Source of the DNA: Psammoneis japonica
Taxonomy: Eukaryota
Assembly (NCBI GenBank): GCA_008632985.1
Contig: QPGO01000007.1
Span: 558,001 to 622,000 of the forward strand
Direction of reading: 5' to 3'
DNA: 64,000 bases
Part shown: positions 8,379-50,899 of the stretch, one piece after another
Position numbering within the stretch: the stretch's first letter is position 1
Layout: every line of letters begins with the position of its first letter
Translations under genes and position numbers: made by a program
Notes under the pieces: generated by a model
Seen by the model: the letters and a program-made list of their open reading frames with translations, nothing else
What the model was told of the DNA's origin: nothing
Database searches by the model: none

Positions 8379-9716
8379 CTACACAGTCATAACATCCTTG
8401 ACGTACTTCTTCAGAGCAAGGTCCACTTTTTTCTTTGGGTCACAGACCGGAGCCAAATCTCCCTTTTTGGCATCACTTGCAAAGTGGTTTACATCACGAT
8501 GCTCGGCTTCATCCGCCCGGATGGCATACATGAGATCTAGTACAGTGCCGTTTTCGCCGAGGTGCCAGTACGCCTTGCCAATCTCAGGGGCAAGTTCTGT
8601 TCGCCACGCTGCAAGCTCACTTCCCTCCGGTGCTTCCTCAATGGCCTTGATGATCTTTGTGTAGGTTGAGCACGCCTCTTCTTCAACATACCCAACAAAT
8701 GAGTGGCAGAACTTGGGGCTAATGATGTAGGCGAGCCCATAAAAGGTTCCGAAACCAAGCTGACCACCAAGAACGGCGCTTCGCATAATCAAACCAGGGT
8801 TCTTCATCTTAACAAAGGTAAGAAGATGCATTCTCTCGTTCAGAGCTTCTTCCAGAAACATATTCAACATGCCACCATCGCGTTCCATTGCCCGAAGACT
8901 CTTAAAGTGACGGAGGATACCAGCTACCATTCCAGGGACAGCAGCGATCGTCTCGAGGTAAATAACTCTGTTCATGATCTTGTTTATCGTGATTTCTCCA
9001 TTCCAACCTGTGCCAAGGTCAAACAGGAATCGAACTGCCTTGACGGCACGGAAGGAGAGATTGTTTGTGATTCCCTCCGGTGCCTTGTGAGTGAGCTGAA
9101 TGTCGAGTTCACTGTCCGTGTAGGCATGCGTTTTACTTCCAAGAATATACTCGGCGCCACAGACTCCAATGCCGAGCTTCTTTGCGACAGCATCCTTATC
9201 AGCGGTCTTGGAAGCCGCCGTGTCCAAAGCTTCTATAAAGCGGTCGAAGGACACAGCTCCACCGCCTTTTCCAGAGTAGAAGCACTCAGTCAGGTTGTCA
9301 ATCTCATGCTCGGTAAATGATGTTTTGTACATCTGAAGAAGCTTACGGAATTCTTCTGGCTGCATCAGACCGTCGCGGTTCTCGTCAATAATCTGAAAGT
9401 CCTTCCTGATCTTCCGGAGAACGGTTGCATCCAAATTCGCAAAGCTGGCATCTCTAGTTTCGACCGCAGCCGCAGGCATAGTTGAGAACTTTCGAACTTG
9501 CTGAGGTGGAGTGGACATCATCTCTTTCAAATAGCAATAGTAAGAATCGCACGAAGGAGTGGAGGTGGGTGCTCCGGTTGTCTTTGGTTTGCTGTTGAAG
9601 TTGATGCGGTGGCCGGTGAATCGGCATGCCTGCGACGCCAGAGCAGCACTTGGGCGAGAAGCGGTGCTGTATAAGGCTCGGGTAGAAAAGGCTCGAGCTG
9701 AAAGTTTGATGATCAT
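8379..9716 (-). CDS. AOX: Mitochondrial alternative oxidase with N-terminal EF-hand region
   Basis: Diiron motifs LETIAAVPGMV, EEALNERMHL, VGYVEEEA and IRADEAEHRDVNH. Arg/Ser-rich presequence. EF-hand loop DENRDGLMQPEE. Confidence 0.95.
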   Translation of the reverse strand: MIIKLSARAFSTRALYSTASRPSAALASQACRFTGHRINFNSKPKTTGAPTSTPSCDSYYCYLKEMMSTPPQQVRKFSTMPAAAVETRDASFANLDATVLRKIRKDFQIIDENRDGLMQPEEFRKLLQMYKTSFTEHEIDNLTECFYSGKGGGAVSFDRFIEALDTAASKTADKDAVAKKLGIGVCGAEYILGSKTHAYTDSELDIQLTHKAPEGITNNLSFRAVKAVRFLFDLGTGWNGEITINKIMNRVIYLETIAAVPGMVAGILRHFKSLRAMERDGGMLNMFLEEALNERMHLLTFVKMKNPGLIMRSAVLGGQLGFGTFYGLAYIISPKFCHSFVGYVEEEACSTYTKIIKAIEEAPEGSELAAWRTELAPEIGKAYWHLGENGTVLDLMYAIRADEAEHRDVNHFASDAKKGDLAPVCDPKKKVDLALKKYVKDVMTV

Positions 9717-9904
9717 GGTGGTGATGGTGTGTTGGTACTGTAGTTGTTGTTGTTATCTGCGATGCTGATTTTTTTGTGAGAGGAGAAGGGATCGATTTTG
9801 TGAGACTTTTTCGGTCGTCGGGCTTTGGCCTTTTCGGACAAAAAGCCTCTTTCCGTCCGGCGCGGCTGTCGCAAGCCCGGCGTACATAAATCCTGATAGT
9901 AAAA

Positions 9905-10026: not shown

Positions 10027-10475
10027 GGATCCGAGTAAGGACTCTGCCACCCGCCGCTTCGGACTAGATCTCGGGTGATCCTAGTCAAGAACCACTAAGA
10101 AGTAACAAATCATTAGGACACTTAGGAGACTCACAGAGTAAAGCTTTCGGCACAAGCTCTGCTCCGTGCAAGGGGGGATGGGGAAAACCCATGCCCTCCA
10201 CAGGGTCCTGCAGCAACACAGGGGCTCTGCTGACAAACCGGAGCAGTGCGAGTGCCTCGGGCGTTTTCGAGTGCCAATCTCGCGAATTGTTCCCTTCGGC
10301 ATTGCGTGACGTTGGGCACAATTTTGAGAACAGAAGGTCAACTCGAACGAAGACACGCCAGGCCAAGTTTTCCCGTGCGAAAACCAAAGCCGTCGAAGGT
10401 CTTGTGCTGCTCGGTTGTCTTGAACCTCGTCTCATCGACTCCCGGGGCCGAATGAGACAGGTCGAGCTCCAATCC
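10027..10475 (-). repeat. Split direct repeat B2 (449 bp)
   Basis: Colinear with 10739-11187 from ggatccgag to aatcc. Confidence 0.95.
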
Positions 10476-10492
10476 AGGGTGAGGTGGGTGGG

Positions 10493-10739
10493 TAAAAAAG
10501 AACAATGCTTTTCCTGGCTTGTGTGATCCAGTCACGTTGATCAGGGTTCCTGCTCCAATCAAGCTGGAAAAGTGAGAAAAGAGAGAGCCGAAGTTTGGCC
10601 GGTCACAGTCGGAAGACTGGACTGGGCCATCTTGAGGCGGAAGTCCCATGCTTCCAAAATGGATCAGGCGAGAGGTCACAGTCACAGCGGGGGGTTGATT
10701 CGAGTCAGTCCGTCTCCATCTAAACTTGGGTGCGAGGAG
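10493..10739 (-). repeat. Split direct repeat A2 (~247 bp)
   Basis: Colinear with 18972-19219, with one G-run indel. Confidence 0.95.
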
Positions 10740-11187
10740 GATCCGAGCAAGGACTCTGCCACCCGCCGCTTCGGACTGGATCTCGGGTGATCCCAGTCAA
10801 GAACCACTGAGAAGCAACAAATCATTGGGATGCTTGGGAGACTCACAGAGCAAAGCTTTTGGTGCAAGCTCTGCTCCGCACAAGGGGGGATGGGGAAAAC
10901 CCATGCCCTCCGCAGGGTCCTGCAGCGACACAGGGGCTCTGCTGATGAACCGGAGCAGTGCGAGCACCTCGGGCGTTTTCGAGTGCCAATCTCGCGAATT
11001 GTTCCCTTTGGCATTACGCGACGTTGGGTGCAATTTTGAGAACAGAAGGTCAACTCGAACGAAGACACGCCAGGCCAAGTTTTCCCGCACGAAAACTGAA
11101 GCCGTCGAAGGTCTTGTGCCACTCGGTTGTCTTGAACCTCGTCTCATTGACTCCCGGGGCCGAATGAGACAGGTCGAGCTCTAATCC
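10739..11187 (-). repeat. Split direct repeat B1 (449 bp)
   Basis: Colinear with 10027-10475. Confidence 0.95.
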
Positions 11188-11301
11188 CCCCCGATGAGAA
11201 ACCTGGGCAGTGGCCACCATAAAAGCTGATCTCGGAGGCAGGAAGATGAAAGACTGCTTTCCGAGAGCCTGACGTCCCCAAGGGCTTGCGACCGTCCCGA
11301 A

Positions 11302-12924
11302 TCACATGGCCTTGGTGCAACGCAGGAAAGAGGGTAAGAGAAGAGTGACGTCGGCATGGTGTTGCCTCATTTTGTGAGCAGGTTGAGCCGCCCCCGCTCT
11401 CTCCTTCTTTTTCCAACGGTTGACGACGTCAATGTCGTCTTCAGATGCCTTTTGAGCAACAGCACGAGAATCGGAACCCCTCTGGAACGATCGGCTTGCA
11501 TCATGTTTGTCCTGTGTGTCAGCAATGGAAGTGATGTCAGCCGCGAATAAACTTGGATGGTCATCGTAGATGTCTCCCAGCACTTCATGGAGAAAAGCAC
11601 CAAGCTCTTTGGTGGATGAGGCTTTCCCGTCCACATCCAACATGGCTGGTCCGCGCGTTCGACGACGTGACCAGTGTAACGACACTGCCGTCTCCACCCA
11701 AAATCGAAGGTTAATCCCAGAACTGGTTGCATTCACACTTGGGAGGAGGTGCTGCCGCTCCCCGTGTTCTCCCTTCACTAGTCCCAAAAGTGGGATCACA
11801 ACGTAATCCGCATGTCTTGGCAGATGCTTTCCCAGAGCGCCCAGGTCCATGAGTGGACCCTCTGGGCCCCGGAGAGACAATGCGTAGCTGGCAGCGAAGT
11901 GCAACCTGCAGGAGAGGTGCACGAATCTGTCCGCCTCTCCTGGGGCCCAAAGGGCCTTCTCCTCGACCCCAGGCATGAGGTGTTGCATGACATCCACTGA
12001 CATCACCCTGTCAGGTCTCCAGTCTTGACCCATCCACCTCTTGCAGCCCGTCATGAAACGTTGAAACCAAAGCGAGGCACACGGGTCCTCACACATTCGG
12101 AGACACTGCTTTCCCTCCAAGTCTCCCAACGCCAAGGCACGTGAGTTGGCTTGGGCAGAGGCCCGCACCTGATTAGAACATGCAGTCCGCAGTTTCCGGA
12201 TCGCATCAAATTGGGTGCATGACTCCGAGTGTTTCCCCACAGTTGCAGACGCCAACACTGTCTGCACAGCCACCTCGCACCCACAGTGGTCATGGGGCGG
12301 GAGAGGACCTGGCTCAAGGCAAGGACCTGTCAGGCCCAAACGTTCAGATAAAGTCAGGCCCCGCCCAACCCTGGCCGCATTCGCTTCGACTGTTGACGAC
12401 TCCCGGCTCCAAAAAGCGTCCAGGATCACGCGGCGGATGCAAGCCAGGGCGACCTCGTCTCGAGGTGATGACGTTGCGGGTTCCCTCTGGTGTGACTTGT
12501 GAAAAACACATAAATCGCACTCAAACGCCACCACAAGATGGTCTCCAACCCGGGCCTGCACGAACTTGTTCTTGTCCTGCTGCTTCCGGAACCAAGGGCC
12601 ATCATCCAACCGTGGCCGGTCAGCCCCGAGAGTTGGGGCATCGTCGTTTTGAGGGTCGTCCGTCAGGGTTCCTCCCAGATGGAACGTCACGCTTTTTCTC
12701 AAAGCACAACACCCGGGACACCACACCTTCCGACATGCCAGCCAGACTCCTACACTGTGCACAAAATTTGCGCAGAATGTGCCCTTCGTCCACCGCAGAG
12801 TCCGCCCACACTCGTCGCAAGGACCGGTCCACAGCATGCATTTTTGGGGTTCCCCGCAGCTGCCAAGGGCTGCAAGAAACAAACGGAAAAAGGAGACCAA
12901 CCAGCAATGGCTCGAACATGTCAC
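11302..12924 (-). pseudogene. Tyrosine recombinase of the retroelement; catalytic Tyr apparently changed to His
   Basis: YALSLRGPEG (catalytic Arg), PLLGLVKGE, SRSFQRG, VNRWKKKE and MRQHHAD, where MRxxY is expected. Only 3 Tyr in 540 aa. Overlaps the end of pol. Confidence 0.85.
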
Positions 12925-15900
12925 CTGGCCAGAACGACCTCGCTCCAGCTGGGATGGTGAAAACTGGGTCCGCCGCCTTGTGCAACTGCTTCTGCCACTC
13001 TGGTGTCATCAACCATGGGCAGACAAACACATGGAAGGAAGTCTGTTGTTTAATCCTTGCGATCCGGAGCTCTTCCAGAGCAGCCCTCGCAGCGGCCGGG
13101 GGCGGGGCCCAAACCCAAGTGCCTGACTTAAAATGGGGCATCTCGATTGCCTCGTGACTCAAGCAATTCCAGCCAGCAATGTCATGTCCCTTCTGATGCC
13201 ACTCCAAAGGGGCCAGTAACTCCGGAGAGGGGGTGCCAGCCCAGGATTGGATCCACGCGAACAGAGTGGAAGAGCGAGCGGTAGCTGCAAGATGAAGAGG
13301 TACGAACGAGAGCATCTTGGCGCCGTTCATCACCCCTTCCGACAATGCTCCCCGAGAAACCCCGTCCGTACCCTGAGCTGTCATCCGACCTCCCGAGACA
13401 TGTGTGAGATGTGGTCTAATCCCATGCTTGGCCTCCAAAGCTTTCAGCCGAATAATTTGCTCGAGCAGCAGAGGGCTGGAAGAGGTGCCCTTATACCAGG
13501 CGAGTTCAGCCACCGAGTTGTCTGTGAAGAAGAATAGACACGCCCCAGTCAATTCCCCTTCCTCTCCGAGTTCCTGGATGGCGTCGACTGTATTGGACAG
13601 TTCCTTCCAATTCGAAGAATTTCCCAGCTCGTCGTCTCCCCACACACCGATCCGGAAGATAATGGTTCCGTCCGATGCTTCCAGAGACGTGCTGAGACCC
13701 TTTCCGGACGCATCACCGAACCCGTAAAGGACAGCGACGATTTTCGAAGACCGAATGATTACTGTAGTGGGGGTTGGTGGCTCCATAATTCGGGACATTG
13801 CCACCAGATCCGTGAACAGGCGAGGGACCCCCGTAACCTGCTGAGGTGGTGGACGGTCCCTTAACCCCTCGGCGACTGCAGCCGGTTCTAACCCCTGCTT
13901 CTCGGCAAGGTGATGAGTCCAGCTTGCGCACTCTTTTCCGGTCATGGCCCAACCGTCCTCCTTTTGATTTGGTCGCCACGAGTCAAGGGTCAAATGAACC
14001 CCTTTCAAAAAAGGGGTTAGAAAGGCACAAGTCATCGCGAGGTGAACCAGAAAACCCCGTTTCCGCTCTAGATCCTTAAAGTCGAACACAGGGAGGAAGC
14101 CTTCGGCCTGATCAGCATGGTGATCAAGTAAATCAGAAATGACAGCTTTGGCTTTATCCCACTTGGCCTGGGATGCCGACTGAGTGACGTCCCTGTCGAT
14201 GACCCTGAAGATGGCACCCGCCCAGGCTCCGGTTTCGACCTGAGAAGGAGGGCGCACTTTTCGGGCCGCGTTCTGTAGACCGAGGTGCTGCAAGCGAGAG
14301 GCCATTTGATGGGCCACTTGCCATGCTGCTTCCTCGCTCGCTCCCACACCTCGTAAGTCGTCCACAAACGTTTTAACATCCCCCGCAATTTCCTCCTGAT
14401 GTGAATTCCACTTCATGACGAACGGTTTGTCCATCTGAAAATTTGGGTTCCCCGGCAAGTTGAGGATCAGCTGGTCACATCCCACAATGTTGGAAGGACG
14501 TTGGGGGTCGCCTCGGGCAATCTCGTCGGCCCAACAGAAGGCTCGAACTGCTGAGCAAGGGCTGGGGCGCATCCCCATGAACAGGCGGTTCCATCGTTCG
14601 AACCAGAGTGCACCCCCCGCAGGTGGCCCAGCCGTCGGGAGATGCGACCTGAGTGGGGTTAGGTCGATCCCCGCATGTGGCCGGATGGCGGGATCCATGA
14701 AAAAATTTAAGAACATGTCCCCGAGATCGAGGTCCACCGAGAAGGTGGAGTGGGTCATGCAACCCAGAACCGAGGCGGGGGTGGGCAAGAAAAAGGAGGG
14801 TGCCCACAAGGCATCATTTGATCCGGAAGAGGTCCCATTGTAAACCATCCGGACATCCTCCACAATTTCCACCAAACGCCCATTCTGAGGCTCGACCCGA
14901 ACAGTCTTTGGGACCCAGAAATGGTCCGTTGAGCTAATCACCTTACCCTGGCAGACACATCCATGGTCTCGGACCTTTTGCATCTTGTCCACCATCCGGA
15001 GGATCTCATGCTCTGCACCCCGGATTCGCTGACGCCGACGATTGCGGGGAAGGGGGCCTTGGACAAAAATTTTAATTCCATCCCGGGCACAAACCCGCTG
15101 TTCCGGTGTGGGCCATCGCCAAAAAAGGAGGGCAGAGCCTCGGTCCCAGTTCCACCATGAACTGGCCAATGCTTGTGTCAACACGTCCGCTCCAAGGTGT
15201 GCGTCAAGTGGCAAAGGTGGGAGTGGAGGGTGATGGTAAACCCCCCCCCTGAAGACGCCCCCTAGCGTCCCCAAAACACCGACGTTGAATGGCCAACCTG
15301 CCGGTCCACGTCGGCCCACACTCCTGGTGGAGGTGGGAGAGGAAGGATCAAAGAGTCCTCCGTTGCCACCATTGGTGGGTTAGCTCCCGGAGTGCAGGTA
15401 GAGCCTTCTCAAAAGCTGGAAACAGAAGGGTGATCCGCTTGTCCCACAATCGAAGCGGAGGCGCCGCCGCATCACCCTTGGCGGCTTTCACCATTGTCAG
15501 AGACACGTCGATCCAAGCATGCAGCAAGTGCTGCTGGAGGTCAGGTAGCCACGTTCCTGCATCACGATGCGCAACGTCAACAATGGCATCCCGATCACCA
15601 ACGGTGTCCCGATTAGCCACACCCCCCGGCCCTGACAAGCATTGGGGAGCGCCGGCAATGTGAGCTTCCACGAACAACGTGAGGAGGTTCAGCGGGACAA
15701 GCCCAAAACCCAGCTCCAAGGCTTGACGCACCGGTGGCATCCGGAAGCACAGAGGGAAATCCCAGGCAGCCAACATTTCATCCACAGAAAGAGCACGGGA
15801 GACCCAACCTGTCGGAGACCGACAAGACGGGTGCACGACCGGCCGGTCCAGGAACTGCGGATCAAGATGGTCAGCTTCCGTGTAAAACTCCCCCCGGGGG

Positions 15901-16472
15901 TGTTGGGGCGATGCCGACCCGGGTGGCTTGCAATCAATGATGTGCCCAATGGATCGGTGCAGGCCATCATCAAAGACCGGAGAGGGCACCCCGTGCCAGA
16001 ACATGTTTGTGCGGAACGAAGTGACACCCCCCACCACCACATGAGTGGTCTCCCGCTGCTGGAACTGATGAAGCCCAAGGAGACTGCGCCCAAAAACTTG
16101 TCCCATGGGGATCATGACAAATGGTGAGGGTCGGATGACGTGCACCATGGATTCAAGGAATGACGGTGGACCCGACACAAAGGAGAGGTTAACCTGGGCA
16201 GCAAGATGCTCCACGCTCGACCAACCGACCTGGGCCATGGACGCTCCTAGCTGGCTTTGGAACACATCCACCAAGAGGGGACTCCAATGGGAACAGTCAG
16301 CGTTGTCTGAACAGAAGTGGAGTGTGGGCCATTCTTTTGGTCTGAGGGACAAAAGCCAAATTGGGGGACCGGAGGAAAGCACTGGACATGCTCCTTGAAA
16401 AGAGAAGGCTTTACGGCCTCGTGTGACATGCCTTAGATTGTCAGGCCTGTCAACCGAGACCAGACCCTCCAA
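12620..16472 (-). pseudogene. pol of the retroelement (N-terminal extension + RT + RNase H), interrupted by a TGA at ~15348 and a frameshift near a C-run at ~15245
   Basis: RMVYNGTSSG, DLDLGDMFLNF, MGMRPSP and FVDDLR (RT). YGFGDASGKG, SSNWKEL, FTDNSVAE and QGTDGVSRG (RNase H). Confidence 0.9.
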
Positions 16473-16496
16473 CGGTTCCTCCGCTCCCCATGGGCT

Positions 16497-18959
16497 TCAT
16501 TTCTTGTTCTCAAGAACCTTGAGGCGCCGCGTTAGTTCCTTCACTTCCATCCGCAATTTCCCAAGTTCCATGTGAGCCGAATCCCCCCGGGCCTGTGCTG
16601 ATTTTGCCTCAGAACTCGCGTTCTTGGCTTTCTCCGTCAATGTCTGGACCGAGGATTGCAAGTCTGTAACTGCTTCAAAACCTGAGTTGGTTGCGAGGAA
16701 CTTGATGCATTCGGACGCCATCGAGGGGTGATCAGCGAAACCCATGGAAGTGCACTCCACCACAATGTCCTGGGTTCTAAACACAGCCCACAAGATTTTG
16801 CTGCACACAGCGTCCGGGTCCGTGCCTGAAATAGAGGTAAAGACCCCCAAGCGCGCCTTGTGAATGTCCTCAAAGATCCGATGGGTCAATTTTGAGGTCA
16901 ACGACCACGCTTGCTTGTTCGAGAATTTGCTCAGATCAGTGAGGGAAGCGCAAGTGGAGTCGATGAATTGAATCAGAGCACAAAGGAAAGCCACCGATTT
17001 TGACAACGCGTCGCGCACCACCTGGCCCTCAAACGTGCCCGGTCTAATCCGTTGATTGATGTCCTCCACAACGTCATTTTCCGTAGAGGCGATTTTCCCC
17101 TCAATGAAATGCTTGGTTCCCACATTGCCAGACGACCAGTGTTCACAAGACTCGACCTCATCCAGGCAAGAAGGATGCAACCCCAAGGTCTGGGCCGACT
17201 TTGCCGATCCCGAGTCAAAAATCCGAGGCATTCAGCATTGGAAACCAGCCAACGTTCTCGCGTCTTCCTCGGTCGCGATGTTCATGCTCATTCGCTTGGC
17301 CCACTGCGACAAAAAGTGATGCAGAGCGGTGGGCTCGATTCCCTTGATCCGGTCCAAGAGCAACACGACATCGGTTGAGCACCCATGCGCCCTCGAGGGG
17401 AAATGCTGTGTCATCCAAGCTTGACACTCCTCGTAGGATGACACGCCAACCCCCGAGAACTCAATGGCGGACTTGTCCGATTTTGCTCGTAATTCACTCA
17501 CAGCACGGTCTAGACGAGTGAGGCGTGTGTCCACGGACCCTTGATCAAATGAAACACCTGGAGGTGCAAACCCCGAACCACACTGCGATTCGATCAACCT
17601 GACCTTGGAAGTGAGCTGCGTGCAAACCCGAAGCATGTTCTTCTTCATGTTCTCCAGATCCGTGCGGCCAGCAGCAGATCCCAACCGATCTTGCATGCAT
17701 TGGAACCTCTCGTTGAACGTCCTCACCAGATTGTTGGATTGAGTTCGCCACCCCGTCTCCACTTGCGTGACACGCTCGACCAGGTCCGGAACTTGGGTTC
17801 CGCTTTCCCTGGATGCCACGTTCGCCAGAGCACCCCAAAGAGCAGGGGCGAGCAGAGTCTCGTCGAACCCCTGGGTCGGCTCCCCCAGAGCCGCGTCTAG
17901 TTGATCCAGCTTCCGACTTAGAATCTCAACCATGGACTCCGCAGCGTGGAAGCACTTGCCAGCTTTGTTGCCGAAGTCGGCTGGTGCCTCCCCGGCTTGC
18001 CTCAACCCATCCTCGGTCGATTGCACCACACGGGCCAACGCGGACGGACTTTTATTAGCCGCCAGGAACTGCGCAGGGGCAGCGAGCATTTGTTTTTCGT
18101 ACGGCGTGAACCTGTCCAGGACGGTGTCTTCTTGAGGAGTCGACGGCTCCGGCCACTGTTTACGAGCCGGTGTCTTGAACTCGGCCGCTCTTTCATGCTC
18201 CCCAAGGGCAGGTTCGACCTCGTCCTCGGTGTAAAAGGGCTCACCATTGCTCAGGACCAAGAATTTTTGCCGCCAACCGGCTGGCGCATCCGACTCGGCT
18301 TCCCACTTGACCAAAACCTCACCGGACATGTTCGCGCCGTTCAGGATGGGTTGGCAAAATCCCGCATCCGGGGACTTGAGAATTGCCATCACACCCGACG
18401 CCGGAATGTGCATCTTGCCGCCCTTGTGCTTCACGTTACACTCGCTTGCCTTCTTGAGACAGAAGGTGGCTCCTCTGCCCTTGATCCCTGAGCACCGAGG
18501 TGCTCCAACAGTCTCCAGCCAGGTGATTCGATGACGAGGCACATGCGAGGACAAAGAGGACGTACCTTCCCCCTCCGACTCGACCGCACCTCCGACATCA
18601 CCTGCTAAATCCCGCCCAAAGAAACCAACCCAAGACAAGCGGGTTTCCCTCTGAACCGGGCGGGATGCGTCTCCTTCCAAAACGTGAGTTCCTGGAGGGT
18701 GGGAAATGACTTCCCCTGGCTCCGCTCTGTCAATGTCCGATTGGGGATGACCAAAACCCCCCGAAATGTCATCGCTTGTGCCCCGAGGATTTAAGCCCTC
18801 GTGACCCCCCCCCTGACGCGCAGCCCCAGAAGGGCGAGCCTGAGGAGAGGGAGCCGCCGGAGAGCTCAACGAGAAGGGCGAGACAACATCCAACTCGAGT
18901 TGATGAGCTAAATCAACGAACGCATCATCTGAGACACCCGAGGCAAAGAAATCCGACAT
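16497..18959 (-). pseudogene. gag-like ORF1 of the retroelement with one in-frame TGA at 17232-17234
   Basis: The 575-aa and 244-aa ORFs are in the same frame and abut. Cys/His cluster (CSG..FCLK..CNVKH) and C-terminal coiled coil. Starts just inside A1. Confidence 0.8.
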
Positions 18960-18971
18960 GACAAGAGAGAC

Positions 18972-19219
18972 TAAAAAAGAGTGATGCTTTTCCTGGCTTG
19001 TGTGATCCAGTCACGTTGATCAGGGTTCCTGTTCCAATCAAGCTGGAAAAGTGAGAAAAGAGAGAACCGAAGTTTGACCGGTCACAGTCGGAAGACTGGA
19101 CTGGGTCATCTTGAGGCGGAAGTCCCATGCTTCCAAAATGGATCAGGCGAGAGGTCATGGTCACAGCGGGGGGGTTGATTCGAGTCAGTCCGTCTCCATC
19201 TAAACTTGGGCATGAGGAG
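18972..19219 (-). repeat. Split direct repeat A1 (5' end of element)
   Basis: Colinear with 10493-10739. Confidence 0.95.
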
Positions 19220-20900
19220 CGACAGAAATTGCAGCGCGCCAGCTGCCGGCACTCCGCCGTTCGGCCTTTCTGGTCATTCCCCTTGCATTCCCACCCCTTG
19301 TCTTCTTGCTGTCTTCACATCATGAGATCTTTTGGCACCTTGTTGGTTCAAACTGCCATGCTCTCATCCTCAGTCAACACTGCTTGGATGATGCTGAAGA
19401 CCGTTTTATTTGCAGCAGCTCTGTCTTCCACCAGCAGGCCAGCCTCATCCTCTGCACTGGGGCCGCACCTTTTGCATTTTTGCCGCGCCATCAGTGGAGC
19501 TTTGACAGGCAAGGAGAGAGGGGGGGGTGGGGTCCAAACAGCCAGTTTGCACAAGACCAGGCATGCTTGTTCAATCAAATGACAAACCAAAGTGAGATTT
19601 GGCCTGGGAGGATGTGTTGGCAAACAACGGCTTTTCTGCACAGAATGTGGTCTTGTGCACAAGGCAAGCTTGTGCACGCTTTTTTGCACAAAGCTGCCTT
19701 GCTCCACTGACAGCTAAGATCTTCAACCCTGTGCCACAAACAGCAGCTCTTCCCTCTCACCCTTGGCATTTTTGCTGCTGGCTTCTTGCAATGCGAGTTG
19801 GGTCAAACCTGCTCTTTCCAGCTGCGAGCTCTTGGGAGAGAGAGGCGGCAGAAACAATGGCAGGGGCAGGGGAGCACAGCTCATTGCTGAAAAGTTCTTG
19901 ATTTCACTCACCTGCTTTGTTGGCTGAGAGATGGCCCTGCTCCAGGGGCTCTCTCCCGCTTCCCTTTTTTTCCAAAGTGCTCTGCCCTTTTGTGGGGCAT
20001 GTGTGCTCTCTTTTCAAAAAGCAAGCGGCCCTGCCAGAGAGAAGGGCTCCCAGCCTGTTTCAGCCCCAGGTGATGCACAATCCATCATGCACAGGCTCAA
20101 TTTTTGTCTCAGTTGGGCACAAGGAACTCTTTCAAATTTGAAAGTTTGGTCGTTTCAAAAGTCGAAAAGAAAGTGCACAAAAAAAAAACAAAAGTTTTGT
20201 GTGCACTTGCCCCTTGATTTGGGAAAGAATCAATTTTGAAGGAGCCCATTGTGCCAAATGCAAAAATGGCCCATTGATGGATTTTGCACACCTGCGCGCA
20301 TTGCCTGGAGTTGGAACACGCCCCCCCAAGAGGCGCAAGCCGACCTTGTTGTTTTTTGCATTTTTTTGAGCTTTGACAGCCTCTTCTTTTGTTGCCAGCA
20401 GTCTTTGCTTGAAGGGCTTCCTTTGTGCAGACTCTCCTCCTCCCCTCTGCCCTCTGGGGGCTTGGTGCCAAACACGCACAAATGGCAGCACACACACACT
20501 TTTCTTGCACCCCTGCGCCACACAACCAGCCGGCCGGCAGTGGCACGGGGGCGGACATCTGTGCCCTCTGCCGGAGGGGGCAGAAGTGCATTTCCTGTTG
20601 CTTTTGGCCAAGAATGCTGCAGGCTGCAGACAGAGAAAAAAAAGCGTCACTGTGAACGAACGAACGAACGAATGGACCAAGCCAAAGTCAAAGTGGTGGC
20701 GTTTTTGCATGCCGTGTGTGATGATGTGAGCGGCGGTGGAGGGGGGCGGGGAGACGCAGCCACACAGTCACGACTAAATTGGTCGCGGAAGCCTTCCGAC
20801 GCCGCAATCATCCAACGATCAACGCGTGTCCTCCAGTCCTGTGCTGTGTCCCACGGCATCCTTGCCTTGTGTGAGGTCAAGATGACAGCGGGCGAAGTGG
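19220..20900. other. Unidentified TpA-depleted relic sequence
   Basis: Only a few TA dinucleotides seen in 1.7 kb (e.g. ~19407, 19715, 20775). No recognisable domain. Short (CGAA)n at ~20657. Confidence 0.6.
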
Positions 20901-20917
20901 CAGACGTGCCGAGAAGC

Positions 20918-23393
20918 ATGAAGCTTTTCTATTTCTTGTTGTTTCAGTTGCTGTGGAGAGTCCGAGTCGTTCGTTGTCCCACCACCTTCTGGTCGAGGAG
21001 GGAGATTCGGCTTTGATGCAGATGCAATCGAAATTGTGAGGCCGATAATTCTCCCACAGACAACGTGGTAGCCTCAGAAAACAGTGTTGAAGACGATCTG
21101 GGATTTCTTGTGAAACGAGGGGATCGTCGTTTGTTTTTTGGATCTACTCTGGTTGCTGTCGGAACGTGTTGGGCGGTGTTAACGCGCGTGCCTATGAGGA
21201 GCAGACGGAGCAACCATTCCCCTGGGAAGCCAATCCCATAATAAGCGTTTCGGGACAACCGTGAAAGATGCCGAAACCAAAGGTGGATACAACAAGGCCT
21301 TTGTAACCTATCTCGCACGCTTCCTCTTGACTTTTGATTCACGTTGTCAAAGCTGGTGGTTTCGAACAACGTTTCCAACCGATAGCGACGCGGAAACCAT
21401 TGAGAAGATGCGAATTGACCAGTTTGCCTCTTTTGCTGCATCCGTAGAAGTTGGATTGTTGGAAGACTACAATGGAAAAGCAGATGTTTTGTTGAAGAAA
21501 CTTGTACAGCGTTATGGTCAGGAAGGAACCAGCCCACAGCAAGTTCGGCTCGCTAAATCTGCACGTCGACACATTGCCCTAATGTTTGGGTTGCTGGAAC
21601 GCATACAACCAGTAAAGGATCTCACGGAGCTGCTAGCTTCCGTCGACAATGGAAAAATCAAAAACGTTAAGATGATTGGTTCTAGAATACGGGGGTTTGC
21701 GTCGCCACCAGAGTTGATTTTTCCACAGCCGCCAAACGGCACTTCCGCAGAAGGCAGAGCGGTGATGAAACCTACTGGACGTCTACTTGACATTCAAGTG
21801 GTTGATCCTGGATCAGGATACTCGAAGCAGCCGATTATTTCCATTGAAAAGAGAGAGTCGTTTAATGGGACAGAGGCCAGATTTCAGGTTGTGATGAGGG
21901 ATGGAGGGATAAGCAAGGTCAAACTTCTCGATGAAGGCTCCGGCTACTTTGATCCTCCCACTATTCATATTTCAGAGCCTTCCGAAGGCGGTAATATTGC
22001 AGTGTTGCAGGCAAATCTTGACTTCCAGATAAGCGGTATTGAGATCACCAATGAAGGGTCGGGATATGCAGTGGAGAGACCCTTGGATATCAAGTTGGAA
22101 AAAGATGTGGTTGTAGCCACGACATCTCCTCAAGCCGACACGAGCAGTTTCACAGGCTTTCGTAGAGACACTGACAAAGAACAACTGACAAGTTTACAAA
22201 TTCAGTTCAACGAACGAAATCATATCAATGCCGCCATGGACGACAGTAGCCTCCCGCCTCTGCCCATTTGGAGTGGAACGTCGGTGTCGTCACAGCTGTT
22301 AAAGCTCTTGCCTGCAGGTGTGGGGCTAGAATATGACTCCAGTCTCAAACGATACGTCATTGCCGTGGATTCTACATTTACAAAGAAATATCCCTTTTAC
22401 TCCGGTAGTCGCCGTCCACTGGGGTTGGAGTTTGGCCCCAGGGGGCGAGCACCAATCGAACGAGACATGGAATTGTCGCTTTCCCAGTATATTAGGTTTG
22501 GTCTGTCAGGAGCGGTATGTGCATCTGGTGTGCATCTTACGCTCACACCTCTCGATGTTGCAAAGACGAAGCTGCAGGTTGACCCTGAGAAGTACAAAAA
22601 CGTTGCAACATCATTTTCCATCATTGGAAAAGAAGAGGGCGTATCTACGTTCTTCACTGGCTGGCTTCCCACCCTTCTGGGTAATTTTTTCAGTGGGGGT
22701 ATATTGTACGCCTTGACTGAAACCATCCGGCGTTCGTTGTCTGAAATGGCGGGTATGGACGCCGCAAACTTAGAAGTCCCTATAATTTTGACGGCTTCTG
22801 GAGTTGCGGCAGCCATTGGCGCTATTATCATTTGTCCGTTTGAAGCGGTTCGAATTCGAACTGTAGCTCAACCGGATTTTGCTGAAAATTCCGGTGCTGT
22901 ATTACGACGTATGCTAAAAGAGGAAGGCTCTCAGTCGCTATTCAATGCCGTTCCTGTTTTCCTAGTGCGCAACATTCCGTACGCCATGACAAAGTTCACA
23001 ATATTTGACCTATCAACGGAGCGTCTATTTGATATGTTCCCTTCGGCACAAGAGGAACTCAGGCTGTCTCTCCTGGTTTCACTGGCTGGTGGAATATTGG
23101 CGGGCTCAGCCGCGGCAATCGTGAGCAATCCCGCAGATGCTGTGATAAGTGAGCTGAAGAAGACAAAGTCAGACATCTCGCCTCAAGAGGCGATAACCAA
23201 CATGTTGGAAAGGGCTGGTCCTTCTTCATTTTTTGCGGGGTTGCCTCTGCGCATGCTATTCTATTCACTCGTTGGAAGCCTTACTTTTGGTGTGTATGAT
23301 AGTGTGAGGTTCGCCTTGGGTATTGGTCCGGACGACCTCAAGCTTTACCTGGACGTCCTCGGAGGGGCACTTCAGAACGCTGGACAATCATGA
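20918..23393 (+). CDS. Mitochondrial-carrier-family protein (phosphate-carrier-like) with long N-terminal extension; 5' part has small frame breaks
   Basis: Three carrier signatures PLDVAKTKLQ, PFEAVRIR and PADAVISEL in ORF 21261-23393. Upstream ATG 20918 gives a hydrophobic signal (MKLFYFLLFQLL), then an ES-FVVP segment. The duplicate at ~31155 carries the extra T that joins the upstream frame. Start position is uncertain. Confidence 0.85.
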
Positions 23394-25329: not shown

Positions 25330-26429
25330 TTTCAATTTTCTCGTGCAAAGCAAAATCTACGAGCTACTGTACATAGGGCCTACCGGTATAAAAAATGCGG
25401 GAACAGAAGCCAAGCAAGAGTGAAATGATCATATTTGATCATTAAGATTATTTATGATAGACCGTTTTCTGGCGGTTTTTGGTTGCTTCGGTTGAGTCGT
25501 GCATGGGGCGACCGATGATGGACTGACGCGGTGTCTCCGGAGCTCGCTCTACGGCCGGCACAAGCTGGCTGCTCTGCGCCGAACTACCGGTAACTTCGCA
25601 CTTGCGAGCACACTTGCACATTCTTCAACCTGCCACCTGCGCAAGCAAGGAAAGAGAGCATCAAAGAAACACTCTGCAACATTGTTGTGCCACACACGCA
25701 AAGAACCTCTCTCTGTGTGTGGTGTGGCGCTGGCACAGCATGTCGAGAGATCATCGCCTGGCCCCAGCAGCTGAGCCCCCACCTTGTTGTGATGTGGGTC
25801 GTTGCTGGAAGCAGTGCCCAGACCAAGGGAAATGCAAGAGACACTGATGCATTGAAGACAAGACATTGTGGATCCTGACATGGTGGACTTGGTGACTTTT
25901 TATGAGTGAAATGTCATCATCACTGATTTCACCTGCGTTTCAGCAGTTTTTGTCTCTTTCTTTGCAGCAAAGATTCATCTTGTGTTCACACATTTGCACT
26001 GTGGCACCACCAGGTGCCTGTTGCATTGCAAGTTTGAAATTTGTGTTGAGAACTGCCAGGCAACCTGCAGCCACCACAAAGCAACCAGGGAGAAAGTGCA
26101 GCGAGAGCAACACAGAAAGCCTTGCGGCGTTCCCTTTTGGTGATGTTGACTTGCCAATTGACGCTCACTGCACCAAAGAGTTGCTGGAACTGCATTTGGT
26201 GATGCTTGCAGATGCCAACCTCCAGCCACACAATCACCAAACATTGGAGCACTGCATTGTGAGCAGCAGAGGAGAAGGCAGATCAAGTGGTGTCGTGGAG
26301 GGCAAGGTCACAACTGGGGCAGCAGAGATTGCAAAGGTTGCAAGTCTTCCTGCAACAAGAGCAAGAAGACTGACTGGAAAAAGAGCTTTTAGCCTGAAAA
26401 AGACATCAAGGAAAAGATTGTCCATTGCA

Positions 26430-27620
26430 TGCAGAAGAAATGTGGCCAAGGCATTCATCTGGTGAGATCTCCAGAAGAAATGAAATGCAAGGATTGTGTC
26501 TCCAAAGAAAGGCCTGCATTGGGCACACCCAAGACACCAGCACCAACTGACACATTGGACAGAGATTGCCAAGCCAAGTTGGGCCAAAGATTGTGAGGGA
26601 AAAAAGGAGCCTGGGTGCAAGCACAAGGCACCAAGCCATGTGACTGCAACAAGAAAGTGAGGAAGCTCAAAGAAAACAAGACTGCTGTGTTTGCCACTGT
26701 CTCAGATGATTGCTGTGCCAAGCCAGTGAAGAAGAGAGTGCAGGCTGATCCCAGTTTCCAAAGTGACTGTTGGGGATCAGCCCCTTGTGCTTGACTCCAT
26801 GAGAGGTTGACATCTGTTCCATGCACTCACCAAGTGTCACTGAAGCACATGTTCTGGAAGTGAAGCAGCAAGAAAGTGAGTGCCAAAGTGTTTGCCACTG
26901 TCTCAGATGATTGCTGCGCCAAGCCAGCAAAGAAGAGAGTGCAGGCTGATCCCAGTTTCCAAAGTGACTGTTGGGGATCCAGCCCCTTGTGCTTGACTCC
27001 ATGAGAGGTTGACATCTGTTCCATGCACTCACCAAGTGTCACTGAAGCACATGTTCTGGAAGTGAAGCAGCAAGAAAATGAGTGCCAAATGACTGCCTGT
27101 CAAAATTTTGGGAGTCAGCAAGATGCAGCAAGTGATGGTCCAGGAAGCAGGATGCCAGACGGATTCATTCAGAACACCAAGGAGTGCAAGAACTGTGCTT
27201 CTGCAATGGACAGAGATGTGCCAAAGAAAGCAGCACTCAAGACATGGACTGTGCGTCTGTTCACAGAGAACAGCAGTGACTGTTTCTGCAAGAGCACAAA
27301 GAAGAGCTTTGTGAGAGATTGCAGCCTGGGTGAGGATGTGCACCCAAGGACCCCAAAGAGGAAAGCAACGGATGTGTTGCTGAATCATCCAAAGGACAGT
27401 GGCCCTTGCAAGCAACACAGCAAGAGGAACAGTGAGGGTTTGAACAACAAGAACAACAATGATGAAAGGTGCAAAGACAAGTCCAACAATCAGAAGGACC
27501 AGAGTTGCACCCAGAAAGGCAACCAAGATGACACAGTGGTGTGTCACTGCTGTGTTGAGCAAAACCAAAAGTCCCCAGACTGCAGACACAATCACAGGGA
27601 ATGGTGATTGCAACTTGCCA
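26430..27620 (+). mobile_element. Degenerate Copia (CoDi-like) gag fragment
   Basis: NKKVRKLKENKTAVFA resembles the gag at ~39850-39910 (NKVKKFKENKTAAFA). Also DCSLGEDVHPRT..ATDVLLNH and a decayed zinc knuckle CHCCVEQNQKSPDC. Confidence 0.7.
26687..27089 (+). repeat. Tandem duplication, 2 x ~201 bp, within the gag relic
   Basis: ttgccactgtctcagatgattgctg...gagtgccaaa occurs at 26691 and again at 26892. Confidence 0.9.
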
Positions 27621-28559
27621 AACCTGGGCCTCTCATTGCCACAATGTCTTTTTGCTCTTTTGGGGGGGAATGGCGGGACAAGGTGGACAGATCAATCTTG
27701 GTCTTTGCCAGTCGCGCATTGTGTGCTGGCCTCTGGCTTGCTGCACAGTGCTGGGAGCAGGGCCATTGTCAAGGATGATCTCATCTGACTCAATGCCCAC
27801 ATTTGCTTTGCTCACACTTTCAGAGACTGTCTTTGTCCAGAGTTGCAACCTGTGGTGCCATGCAGCTCTGTCCTTGCTCCAGCTGGAATGGCTTGGTTGG
27901 TTGGATCTGGCAGTGTTGACAGCTGCTCATGCCGCTGTTGCTGTCCACCGACTGACTGTCATCATCTCTTGTTTGTTGTGCGCGACTCTGTCCCCAGTGT
28001 CTGGCTTTGTTCCAGTGTTCCTGTGCCACTTCTTGGGTGGAATGTCATGGCTGAAAGGGCGCCAATGACAACAACCAGGCATGCTGTGGTCGTCACCCTT
28101 GGTGCTGGATGGCAAGGAGGACAGTCTGGAGAAGGTTGTTCCAGGCAAGCGATTCTCCACCCGGTGTCCCACCAATCATGGAATGGCAGCATTCAAGACA
28201 ATGAGAGGAACGTGCTTGTCTGGCCTTTCGTGTTGTTGTTGTTCCCTGTCATGTCAGAACATCCAAAAGACTGCCACCAGCAGAGTGGACGAGACTGTGG
28301 CACTCTCCCCTGCTGTCATTGAGAGCAGGCCCTCAGTCCCATGTGGTCCATCCTTCATCCTACATTGCCTCTCTCATTGCTCCACTCCTTGTCTTTGATT
28401 TGCTTGCACAGTTGGTGCGCAGCCAATCTGTCCACTGCAGTGTCAACAATGGAAGTTTCATGTCAATCCCCCACAAGAAGAGACACCAAGGCCAGTGGTG
28501 ATGAAGCGTCAAATCCCGCAGAGGGAAACCGACAAAACGGCACCAAGGAGAATGGCTAG

Positions 28560-28830
28560 AAATGCAAGTGCCCCAATGTCAGCGGACATGGGCAGCAATG
28601 GAGACTTAGATTTAATTGCTGGGATGAGCAGCAACCTAGATGTAGAAGTCCCAAGGCATTTTGAGAATGTTGGAACAAAGCAGGCCCCATCCTTCACACA
28701 CCGTTTCGGAGTGGACAATCCAATTCCTGACTTTGTCCTCTCTCCTCCTGTGATTGGCATCACCAAGGTGACCTCAGGAGATGTCGATGACGATGGTGAC
28801 ATCAATGTAATCACCAGCACAAGCAATTGC
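28560..28830 (+). pseudogene. FG-GAP/VCBS-repeat gene fragment
   Basis: ADMGSNGDLDLIAG...RHFENVGTKQAPSF...GDVDDDGDINVI. Confidence 0.6.
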
Positions 28831-30879
28831 CTCCTCTTGGAGATGCCAGTTCCCCTAATTTTGCATTTACAGATTGTGATTGTGATCCCTTGTGGGATCC
28901 TCTTTTGGCAACATTGACATGCCGGTGCAACAGACATGCCTTTGCAGGCTGCAAAAACCACCAGAGGGTGAACAAATGCTCCTGCAGCATCTCAAGTGTT
29001 CAGAGAAATGACTGTTCACCCACTGGCCATTTTTTGTTTTGTGTGTGATGTGCATGAAAGTCTCTAATTTTGCCAGCACACCACCATTGTGTGCACATTG
29101 TCTGTTGTGTGGCAAGAGGGAGCAGCCCCCCTCAAGGCTTGAGATGTCACGACTCTTTTGTGCACTCCTCCTTCTCTAGAAACCATTGCAAAGCACATTG
29201 AACAGATGAAAGTGGAATGAATCTGTGCAGAAACAGCTGCCTTTGAGGCACTTTCCTTGGGCGTCCAGAAGATCCTTTGTTGGCAAACCAACAGGCAAGG
29301 CAAAGCTGGCCCTCAACTCCAGCAACATCTGTGAGGACAATCCATGGACAAGGGACAAGCAGACCAAAGACAGGGTGCAATCTCTGCTGCCTCTGACCAT
29401 GGGGGCTGCAGCAGTGCATCCACTGTTGCTTTTGGTCAAGAACACTGCAGGCTGCAGATGGGCCAAAAAAGACATGTCTCTGTGAAAGCGGTGACACATT
29501 GATGGGCAGCGGCAGGGCAGATGCCAAGTTCATCATGGGACCCTGCAAATGCAGAGGGACATGCACCTCAGAAATGTTGTAATTTTGATTTTTTGATTTT
29601 TGCTTGATGAAAGATGCATGACCACAGATGCTGTTGCATCCGACAGAGAGTGCACAGTTGTTGTGCAGTTCAATCCTCTGCTCCACTCACTTGTCACACT
29701 CTGCAAGAAGACTGTTTGGTCCTGTGGAAGGCCACAATGTCATCAAAAAGGAAGGCTGTCTCCCCAGAAAGCTGTGGAAATGTGGTGTGTGAAGAAGCAC
29801 TGAAGAGCAAGACTTGAAGATGCACTTCACCAAGCATCCACATGGGTGCCATTTGTGCTGTCACTGCTTTGGAGAAATGCATGCACAGCAACTTTGTGAA
29901 GGGCCCATTTGTCTCAGCTGTGACAGCTGTGCTGACCACCACAAGTGTGTCACTTGCTGAGACATGCCAGCTTGAGAAAATGCTCCAAGATGGAGAATCC
30001 GATGGGTCAAGAGCAGTTGCATCACAAAGCAGAGAGTCTGGCACTGGAGTTGTGCAGCAAGAGTTGTCATGCTTGCATTTTGACATTGAAGGCTTTGAAG
30101 TTCTTGCTGATTTGTTGTGTCTTCCTTTGTGTGAACAAAAGAATGCAGTGGTTTTTGAAGTTGCAACAGGGGGGATGGAGTTGCCACTGGTGCACACGGA
30201 TGGTTGATCTTTGCAAACTTGTGAGCAGCTGAGTTGGGATGCTTTTCTGAGGGTGTGAAGACCAGTTTTTGTTTGCTTGCTTTGTTGCTTCATGCTTCAT
30301 GCTTTCTTGGTTCAGCCTGAAGTGGAATGCCAAGATCTGGCTCTCCATTGGAACTGCTCAACAGACAAGCTACAAGGATTTGCCAACAATGACAAAAGTC
30401 TCTTGAATGATTTTGTGGACCACCTGATGACAGACTCAAGAAAGCAAAATGGTGGAAAAGTGACAGATGCAACAAAGGGAAATTGCAACAAGGCATTTGT
30501 CTGTGCAGAGCTCATCAGAAATGTTGCAAGCAATGAACCAACGCCTTTCCAAAGGACTTCAGTAGAAGTCCTTTCCAAGTCATTGTCAAGAGCGCCAAGA
30601 GTTCACACTTCCATGATTGGGGGATCTCTCCCTCTCAAGAAGTTCCGTTTGATGCAAGGACATTGCTGAGGCAGATGATGAATTTGTGCGCCAACTTGAC
30701 ATTCAGAAAGGGGGTCAGTTGGGGATCAGTTTGGACAATCTTGACACAAAAGGCTTGTTGCAGATGGGTGCGCTGCCACACATCATTTCACAACCCAGCA
30801 GGTGACAGTGAACAAGGAGGAAGAAGCAAAGGAGATTGCAGCTGGACCATCTCACAAATGAGACAGTTGGGAATCAACA

Positions 30880-31561
30880 AGATCGTTCGTTGTCCTACCA
30901 CCTTCTGATCGAGGAGGGTGATTCGGCTTTGATGACAGATGCAATCGAAATTGTGAAGCCGACAATTCTCCCACAGACAACGTGGTAGCCTTAGACGACA
31001 GCGTTGAAGACAATCTGGGATTTCTTTTGAAACGAGGGGATCTTCGTTTGTTTGTCGGATCTACTCTGGTTGCTGTCGGGACGCTGCTTGGGAGTGTTGA
31101 CGCGCGTGCCTGTGAGGAACAGACGGAGCAGCCATTCCCCTGGAAAGCCAATCCCATTAACAAGCGTTTCGGAACAACCGTGAAAGATGCCGAAACCAAA
31201 GCTGGATGCATCAAGGCCTTTGTAACCTATCTCGCCCGCTTCCTCTTGACTTTTGACTCAAGTTGTCAAAGCTGGTGGTTTCGAACAACGTTTCCAACCG
31301 ACAGCGATGCAAAAACCATTGAAAAGATGTGAATTGACCAGTTTGCCTCCTTTGCTGCATCTAACCAACATGTTGGAAAGGACTGGTCCTTCTTCATTTT
31401 TTGCGGGGTTGCCTCTGCGCATGCTATTCTATTCACTCGTTGGAAGCCTTACCTTTGGTGTGTATTATAGTGTGAGGTTCGCCTTGGGCATTGGTCCGGA
31501 CGATCTTAAGCTTTACCTGGACGTCCTCGGAGGAGCACTTCAGAACGCTGGACAATCATGA
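30880..31561 (+). pseudogene. Truncated duplicate of the carrier gene (5' end lost, ~1.75-kb internal deletion, CGA->TGA stop)
   Basis: 30884-31361 matches ~20968-21442 and joins directly (tgctgcatc|taaccaacatg) to sequence matching 23194-23393. TGA at ~31330. Confidence 0.92.
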
Positions 31562-34188: not shown

Positions 34189-34615
34189 TGTCTCCAAAAG
34201 GGAATTTCATGTGAGGTCTCCTCAGCAACTTGCTGCACTTGCCTTGGCAGTCTGGAAACTATGTTGGCTGTGGTTTGCCCAGGCATCAACGTAAATGCAA
34301 CAATCACCAACACAACAGGCATCCTCGACACTGCCCAACAATCATGTGAACCAAAAAATGATTCACTCCAAAGAGTGAGAATAAAGACACATGCAGGGAA
34401 TGTGATGATGGTTGTGATCTCCTCATCAAAGAATGCTGTCACACCAACAGCCGCCCCTGCTGCCAGTGCAAATGTCCTTCACTTCAAATGATCCGGGTGA
34501 TGCACAGTGACATCTGGGTCACTCATCCCCCTGCTGCCAGTGCAGATGTCCTTCACTTCAAATGATCCGGGTGATGCACAGTGACATCTGGGTCACTCAT
34601 CTTCACATTCCAACA
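34189..34615 (-). repeat. 3' LTR containing a 74-bp internal tandem duplication (34457/34531)
   Basis: Aligns by eye with 40431-40766. Confidence 0.8.
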
Positions 34616-50870: not shown

Positions 50871-50899
50871 ATGCATTTAACACCATTTACAGAATCACA

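Follow-up and report, generated by a model that had tools for sequence, protein, structure and literature searches.

Probable in-place loss of TpA dinucleotides from a dead tyrosine-recombinase retrotransposon of the diatom Psammoneis japonica

Introduction

Why should two copies of a repeat within a single transposable element (TE) differ from each other at pyrimidine-purine dinucleotides and nowhere else? This question is raised by a 64,000-nt stretch of the Psammoneis japonica genome (GenBank assembly GCA_008632985.1, contig QPGO01000007.1, positions 558,001 to 622,000 of the forward strand), hereafter called the window, to whose positions all coordinates refer. The segment 10027-19219 of the window is one copy, now dead, of a Ngaro/PAT-like tyrosine-recombinase retrotransposon (order DIRS) that occurs many times in a diatom nuclear genome, and it carries two 449-bp repeats, B1 and B2, together with two copies of another repeat, A1 and A2. 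The answer that we consider probable is that, after its insertion, the element was hit in place by two processes, a fast one that turned TpA into CpA or TpG and a slower one of CpG decay. Below, YR denotes a pyrimidine-purine dinucleotide, and o/e the ratio of observed to expected occurrence.

Differences between the two B repeats

B2 (10027-10475) is the terminal copy, situated at the element's 3′ end in coding orientation, and B1 (10739-11187) is the internal copy; both are on the minus strand. Pairwise alignment of the two gave 449 columns without a gap at 92.4% identity. The 34 differing bases fall into 25 dinucleotide sites, and all 34 are transitions within YR dinucleotides, with no transversion, no transition outside YR and no indel in the 449 columns. 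YR context accounts for 42% of the bases in B, so that P~1e-6 for 16 of 16 single changes to fall there. The initial annotation had described the two repeats as differing almost only at TA, TG, CA and CG, and 25 of 25 sites proved to be of this kind.

Single differences involving TA comprised 5 CA/TA and 5 TA/TG sites, with the TA in B2 at 8 of them and in B1 at 2. The TA sites of B2 (10036, 10065, 10082, 10096, 10103, 10114, 10123 and 10139) are exactly the eight listed beforehand, and there are no others in this copy; B1 reads CA at four of them and TG at the other four. B1 has TA at 11015 and 11182 only, where B2 reads TG or CA, again as first described. Nine adjacent CA/TG doubles were counted, matching the earlier estimate of about nine reciprocal sites, and the leftover differences, previously given as CG against TG or CA, amounted to six singles (4 CG/TG and 2 CA/CG). 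Dinucleotides common to B1 and B2 include 27 CG, 25 CA and 18 TG, and no TA.

Direction of change

Three indirect lines of evidence, namely site counts in B, tyrosine columns of the encoded proteins and the TA content of related elements, support the reading that change at the YR dinucleotides of B ran away from TA. The further proposal of the initial annotation, that hits fell on one or the other strand of palindromic dinucleotides once the element had inserted, is likewise supported.

In a model where the sites of B derive from CG, the 27 intact and 6 half-lost CG give a loss of 0.10 per copy and predict 0.17 doubles, against the 9 observed (P 2e-13); the doubles are thus best explained by ancestral TA. 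The corresponding TA model gives a per-copy loss of 0.78. Under it, B would have started with about 29 TA, where base composition leads one to expect 21, and 1.4 TA/TA pairs should survive, whereas none was observed.

Within the three open reading frames (ORFs) of the element, the polarity is one of TA loss. Both tyrosine codons contain TA. At 29 columns where the consensus of homologues is Tyr, the window has His or Cys at 19 (9 His and 10 Cys) and keeps Tyr at 4, the altered codons being TGT/TGC and CAT/CAC. ORF2 contributes 19 of these columns (6 His, 5 Cys, 4 Tyr, 3 Phe and 1 Trp), ORF3 six (3 Cys and 3 His) and ORF1 four (2 Cys, 1 Ala and 1 Val). The reverse change, from a consensus His or Cys to Tyr, was seen at 1 of 41 columns. 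His and Cys together occupy 11 of the 19 Tyr columns of ORF2 in the window, compared with a maximum of 19% and a mean of 8% among 120 homologues, and the Tyr content of ORF2 is 0.39% compared with 1.44-3.44% in the same homologues. TA o/e of the whole element is 0.22, whereas 80 metagenome relatives ranged from 0.36 to 0.78 with a median of 0.61, none being as low.

An edge inside B2

TA is not retained evenly along B2. The outer 114 bp (10027-10140) hold all eight TA sites of this copy, at normal TA density, so that TA is kept there at 8 of 9 informative sites; the inner 335 bp keep it at none of 10 (Fisher 1e-4) and the outer part of B1 at none of 9 (Fisher 4e-4). The outer end of B2 lies 275 bp from the start of an alternative oxidase (AOX) ORF (8379-9752, minus strand). 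From these positions we infer that the border of the mutated domain runs about 114 bp inward from the end of the element, leaving out the neighboring promoter region; alternatively, the outer part of B2 could be a younger or a mis-assembled, chimeric segment.

The same signature in other TE blocks

A scan by kilobase found further TE blocks at about 19.2-21, 25.6-30.9, 33.8-41.8 and 52.8-56.1 kb, all four with TA o/e of 0.02-0.08, CG o/e of 0.12-0.49 and CA/TG o/e of 1.4-2.0, while genic DNA in the window had TA o/e of 0.52-0.60 and CG o/e of ~1.0. The edges of the blocks are sharp to ~200 bp. The combined deficit of TA and CG was close to the combined excess of CA and TG in three of the blocks (889 vs 865, 587 vs 518, and 325 vs 335) and less close at 19.2-21 kb (158 vs 110). 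The retrotransposon itself is intermediate between genic DNA and these blocks, with TA o/e of 0.22 and CG o/e of 0.77, which indicates that TA was lost before CG.

One block is a degraded copia-like element, with a weak RVT_2 match (E 0.005), a YVDD patch and ends resembling long terminal repeats (LTRs) that carry 9 CA/TG doubles, and another is a DDE_Tnp_4-like DNA-transposon remnant, again by a weak match (E 3e-4). Since both kinds are affected, the process is not tied to reverse transcription. These two weak matches were the only ones obtained when 55 ORFs of the TE blocks were compared with Pfam. TAA and TAG stops are nearly absent from the blocks, which leads to long spurious ORFs in all frames and lets true TE proteins escape Pfam.

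Surviving TA was counted in TE blocks taken as 10141-21000, 25800-30900, 33900-41900, 48900-51000 and 52900-56000. Relative to genic DNA, TTAA was enriched 3.4-fold among the survivors and CTAA/TTAG 2.2-fold, and the ATAT context was found at 0 of 178 TA sites in TE blocks compared with 100 of 1212 (8.3%) in genic DNA. This neighbor bias hints at a flanking-base preference of the process.

Two smaller observations belong to these blocks. In the copia-like block, a patch at 37020-37060 (minus strand) encoding FYVDDLLLSY keeps its Tyr codons, and hence TA, together with one CG; either patchy hypermutation or conversion from an intact copy could have left it. An ORF at 52856-53911 (minus strand), inside a TA-free block, has weak matches to DDE_Tnp_4 and Endonuclease_7.

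Genic and tandem duplications as controls, and the A1/A2 pair

A genic duplication in the window, consisting of 21019-21442/30936-31361 and 23194-25400/31362-33580, is 89-92% identical, a divergence similar to that of the B pair, and served as a control. Its mutation spectrum is ordinary: 263 events comprised 108 transversions, 84 transitions outside YR, 68 YR singles and 3 CA/TG doubles, and its TA o/e is 0.56-0.60. YR events and other events numbered 71 and 192 in this duplication and 25 and 0 in the B pair (Fisher 1e-13), and doubles occurred at 3 per 2600 bp compared with 9 per 449 bp in B (Fisher 4e-6). A 181-bp tandem array at 51.0-52.5 kb likewise retains TA, its o/e being 0.75 for the bin of 51-52 kb and 0.48 for that of 52-53 kb. 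Because neither the genic duplication nor the array is affected, duplication is not the trigger, unlike in repeat-induced point mutation (RIP).

The segmental duplication to which the control belongs (21019-25272/30936-33448, a mitochondrial-carrier ORF region) is 89-95% identical, its second copy lacks ~1.75 kb, and the TA- and CG-free block of 25.6-30.9 kb sits between its two copies. The array (51006-52492) is built of ~181-bp units that are 66-94% identical, and its neighbor is a moderately TA-poor 695-aa ORF (48948-51035) without a Pfam match.

A1 (10493-10739, minus strand), the internal A copy, is 94.8% identical to A2 (18972-19219, minus strand), the terminal copy at the element's 5′ end in coding orientation. 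Their alignment, which the initial annotation had suggested as a second comparison, repeated the pattern of B in part, with 3 CA/TG doubles, one CG/TG site and no transversion, and departed from it in 5 transitions outside YR and one 1-bp indel. At 4 of these 5 transitions A2 has A or T where A1 has G or C, in GC[C/T]-type contexts.

Structure and coding regions of the element

Read on the minus strand, the element consists of A2, three ORFs, B1, A1, a 17-bp spacer (10476-10492, not repeated elsewhere) and B2. Split direct repeats in the order A1-B1-A2-B2 define the PAT, Ngaro and VIPER tyrosine-recombinase retrotransposons, according to PMC4157794, and the A...B-A-B layout together with a tyrosine-recombinase ORF assigns the present element to the Ngaro/PAT type of order DIRS. 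As in the Ngaro and PAT elements described there, A is followed by ORF1, a putative reverse transcriptase (RT)/RNase H ORF and a recombinase ORF, and then by B-A-B, the internal repeats lying downstream of the recombinase; as there also, a related ORF3 has a modelled fold resembling Cre and XerH. Unlike in typical Ngaro/PAT elements, the putative RT ORF is barely recognised by Pfam. A methyltransferase-like domain sets PAT and DIRS elements, which have it, apart from Ngaro, which lacks it. The family has no annotation except for one 'hypothetical protein' of Fragilaria crotonensis.

A relative from another contig (L018) shares the three ORFs and the A...B-A-B arrangement; both of its repeats, A and B, are perfect over 127 nt and take in the two contig ends, so that they may represent k-mer overlaps of the assembly. 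Five repeat pairs of metagenome relatives (2274 bp) were 95-100% identical, and their differences formed a mixed spectrum of 23 transversions, 12 transitions outside YR, 13 YR singles and no doubles, which is weak evidence as these are assemblies of mixed populations. The split-repeat layout makes it reasonable to assume, as was done initially, that the repeats were identical at insertion; among relatives only the exact repeats of L018 speak for this assumption, which stays unproven for this copy.

No other copy was found in the window, where the family profile matched 12623-16496 only and sensitive blastn of B-A-B returned only itself and A2. In sequencing run X1, which may be from the source sample, many copies of the family are represented: alignment to 10476-18960 took in 804 contig pieces, the summed word depth was 200-2000 compared with ~25 for a record identical to the window, and 2349 places varied between copies (1656 transitions and 693 transversions). 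Runs X2 and X3 yielded no aligned piece.

None of the five long ORFs of the element matched a Pfam family. ORF3 (11302-13005, minus strand), now dead, matches the profile of 53 relatives' ORF3 (E 1e-166). An AlphaFold model of ORF3 from one relative (L002), built on a 45-sequence alignment, had a predicted local distance difference test score (pLDDT) of 84.9 and a predicted template modelling score (pTM) of 0.74, and it matched Cre, XerH, Tn1549 Int and lambda Int (Foldseek E 1e-5, probability 1.0). Profile searches of Pfam and PDB with this ORF gave no meaningful match, and only the fold search identified a recombinase; on the strength of the model, the ORF3 family is predicted to be a tyrosine recombinase. 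A C-terminal Tyr shared by 44 of 45 relatives, and so near-invariant, is replaced by His in the window (codon CAT, 11356-11358), and this residue is the candidate catalytic Tyr of the modelled recombinase. A second Tyr, invariant in 45 of 45 relatives, is Cys (codon TGT, 12706-12708).

ORF2 (12623-16496, minus strand) is RT/RNase H-like, about 1220 aa long, with a frameshift near 15351-15379. Its family comprises at least 733 proteins that are 42-50% identical, nearly all without Pfam domains, one of them carrying PF00078. No close paralogue was found in the protein database, the best match being 50% identical. The consensus of homologues has FVDD, GDAS and TDN motifs, which we take to be those of RT and RNase H. 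RVT_1 gave a weak match to one homologue (E 1.9e-5; its 24.9 bits fall short of the 29.6 bits that Pfam requires), and the ORF2 profile had no match in PDB. Two consensus Trp columns of ORF2 read Gln in the window (TGG to CAG), which as a TG-to-CA double change must have passed through TA or CG. ORF1 (16497-19010, minus strand) is gag-like by position only and lies in two pieces, matched at 16497-17231 (E 1e-55) and 17232-19010 (E 1e-45) by the profile of 35 relatives' ORF1.

Proposed process and points against it

In the process that we propose, TpA would become CpA or TpG by one A-to-G change on either strand, with a loss of ~0.8 per copy in B, and CpG would undergo its ordinary, slower decay to TpG or CpA, ~0.1 per copy, presumably via cytosine methylation of silenced mobile DNA. 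Loss of the same ancestral TA on opposite strands of the two B copies would then produce an adjacent CA/TG double difference, and loss in one copy a difference of TA against CA or TG. The outer 114 bp of B2, adjoining the AOX promoter region, would have escaped, and such an escape implies that what the process acts on may be a sharply bounded domain of chromatin or of targeting rather than the element as a sequence unit. The changes at the B sites probably arose in place after insertion, with the edge protected.

The products are symmetric (5 CA/TA vs 5 TA/TG; 9 His vs 10 Cys), which indicates a change in double-stranded DNA and not editing of sense RNA. Mispairing of oxidised thymine is an alternative chemistry; the one that we prefer, by analogy with a proposal for the alga Bigelowiella natans, would be enzymatic adenine deamination at TpA in DNA. 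TA loss is co-extensive with CG loss, which suggests silenced, methylated mobile DNA as the target. Methylation of TEs in diatoms depends on DNMT5a, according to PMC9998398.

Several points weigh against this reading. All of the evidence comes from comparison of sequences. The clustering of TA in B2, with 8 sites in the outer and none in the inner part, needs the added assumption of a protected edge or of a younger or chimeric segment. Change in place leaves unexplained the 5 transitions outside YR between A1 and A2, a class that is absent from the 449 bp of B. Over the whole element, the CA+TG excess of 240 falls short of the TA+CG deficit of 512. The polarity of the 25 B sites comes from indirect lines and not from other genomic copies. 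A breakdown of variants from run X1 covers 40 of the 2349 rows, none of them within B, and seven of these rows have TA in the window against CA or TG in every other contig, while four have the reverse; the remaining rows were 7 window-specific CG losses, 2 doubles (4 rows) and 18 other changes. Most of the TA-bearing rows are synonymous, and two were polarised by protein outgroups, both favoring ancestral TA. At 13302, one of the 7 rows with window TA, the window reads Val (GTA), the other copies Ala (GCA), and homologues Ile, Val or Leu; at 11729 GCA in the window stands against GTA elsewhere, Val being commonest in homologues. That the other copies agree among themselves could stem from their shared descent, as a subfamily, from a master element that had mutated beforehand.

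Beyond this locus lies a wider reading, on which our judgement is evenly divided, that diatoms have a directed DNA-editing defence converting TpA to CpA or TpG on both strands of silenced mobile DNA without duplication as its trigger. That such a defence would work in chromatin-like domains, with edges sharp to ~100-200 bp that need not match the ends of elements, seems to us about as plausible as not. The estimates for B (0.78 vs 0.10 loss per copy, or ~14-fold as rates) would make TpA editing an order of magnitude faster than CpG decay, a ratio that may equally well fail as hold.

Alternative explanations

The alternative that survives best, although we regard it as improbable, is that the differences predate insertion or reflect a mosaic assembly, B1 and B2, or only the outer 114 bp of the latter, having been copied from different mutated members of the family by template switching in reverse transcription, by gene conversion or by chimeric assembly of a family of roughly 30-80 copies. 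The dinucleotide signature would then still be real but would be no sign of post-insertion change at this locus. Such an origin would suit the high copy number seen in run X1 (depth 200-2000 vs ~25; 804 contig pieces), the dominance of transitions between copies (1656 of 2349 variant places), the abrupt switch from TA-rich to TA-free sequence within B2, and the 5 transitions outside YR in A1/A2, of which B has none. However, B contains no transversion or indel, while 693 of the 2349 variant places between copies are transversions. TA is uniformly low over 10141-19219 and the switch adjoins the unmutated flank, as the edge of a domain altered in place predicts; edges equally sharp were found at the other TE blocks.

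Still less probable is a RIP-like process in which C-to-T change at CpA/TpG made the TA of the outer 114 bp of B2, with the doubles coming from decay of CpG on opposite strands. It would account for the 7 of 40 rows in which the window has TA and all other copies CA or TG, and, according to PMC9998398, the DNMT4 enzymes encoded by diatoms fall into one group with fungal RID. However, RIP enriches TA, whereas every TE block of the window is nearly TA-free (o/e 0.02-0.22), and change from consensus His or Cys to Tyr is confined to the single column among 41. Decay of CpG would yield 0.17 doubles where 9 are observed, B shows no C-to-T change at CpC or CpT, and duplicated genic DNA and the tandem array are untouched.

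ADAR-like or ADAT-like editing of the transcript at UpA, fixed by reverse transcription, would place the changes during copying, and we consider it very doubtful. The element is a retrotransposon, and A-to-G change after U is a known preference of RNA adenosine deaminases (bioRxiv 10.64898/2026.01.13.699255), both of which would fit. Yet the two strands were hit equally, B1 and B2 of a single insertion differ from each other, the ends of the mutated domain are unrelated to the transcript, and the DNA-transposon-like block is equally TA-free. Chance, or selection on the sequence through codon usage or avoidance of stop codons, can practically be dismissed: genic DNA of the window is itself moderately TA-poor (o/e 0.52-0.60), but the pattern has P~1e-6 to 1e-13 against the window's own spectrum and is rejected by the genic controls, B has no identified coding function, and a coding element under selection cannot lose invariant Tyr residues.

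Comparison with known systems

Change in place from TpA, the reading that we prefer, has a close counterpart in Bigelowiella natans. Mettrop et al. (bioRxiv 10.64898/2026.01.13.699255) followed mutation accumulation in that alga and found TpA to TpG/CpA in 230 of the 231 mutations newly arisen in two integrated viral regions, at a rate of ~1e-7 to 1e-6 per site per generation that was episodic among lines. TpA-poor, CpA+TpG-rich clusters of that genome are enriched in RT and DDE domains, and the authors propose an ADAT2-like DNA adenine deaminase. The diatom changes resemble those described there in being almost only TpA to TpG/CpA on both strands, although known here by comparison and not from observed new mutations. 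They also resemble them in their confinement to foreign or mobile DNA (TA o/e of 0.02-0.22 in the TE blocks and the element, compared with 0.52-0.60 and an ordinary spectrum in genic DNA) and in the coupling of TpA depletion to CpA+TpG enrichment. Differences lie in the host, which is a diatom (Stramenopila) and not a chlorarachniophyte (Rhizaria), and in the targets, which are transposable elements instead of giant-virus and virophage inserts. Depletion in the diatom is near completion, with TA o/e of 0.02-0.08 compared with 0.45 for a B. natans viral region, and TA loss coincides here with CpG loss.

The TpA hypermutation signature in the diatom is thus a second instance of a kind described once, in another lineage; a search of the literature on diatoms and stramenopiles found no report of TA loss in diatom transposons, though preprint supplements may list other taxa. 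With a scar near saturation in several classes of diatom transposon, the process is extended to a second major lineage and to transposons. If diatoms do have a directed defence of the kind considered above, TpA editing would, together with Bigelowiella, be a shared and possibly ancient genome defence of the Stramenopila-Alveolata-Rhizaria (SAR) group, with a putative DNA adenine deaminase or thymine-modifying enzyme behind it.

RIP in Neurospora is a C-to-T process that turns CpA into TpA and enriches TA. The diatom pattern is like fungal RIP in that dinucleotide-specific transitions destroy mobile elements in place and leave sharp-edged compositional blocks, and unlike it in that TA is erased from the TE blocks and that a 2.6-kb genic duplication and a tandem array stay untouched, RIP being triggered by duplication. 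AT-to-GC hypermutation at one dinucleotide is also opposite to the usual GC-to-AT bias and to classical defence mutators such as RIP and APOBEC. Methylation-driven CpG decay accounts for the 6 sites of CG against TG or CA in B and for CG o/e of 0.12-0.49 in the TE blocks, but it cannot remove TA, nor can it give 9 doubles while 27 CG stay intact in both copies; TpA loss here outruns it.

For practical use, the B1/B2, A1/A2 and LTR pairs offer simple internal clocks with which the process can be measured. Replacement of Tyr by His or Cys, loss of TAA and TAG stops and the resulting spurious ORFs would explain why remnants of diatom TEs evade domain searches, and they constitute an annotation hazard. 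Low TA and low CG combined with CA/TG near twice expectation can serve as a compositional marker for dead mobile DNA.

Other features of the window

The AOX ORF next to B2 is intronless and has an N-terminal EF-hand pair; its best matches are 75-83% identical, and those from named diatoms 51-59%. An XPB fragment in the window is 77-85% identical to named diatoms, the first being Nitzschia inconspicua, Fistulifera solaris and Cylindrotheca closterium. An ORF at 58082-59200 (minus strand), in DNA of normal composition, combines a GIY-YIG domain with two CCHC zinc knuckles.

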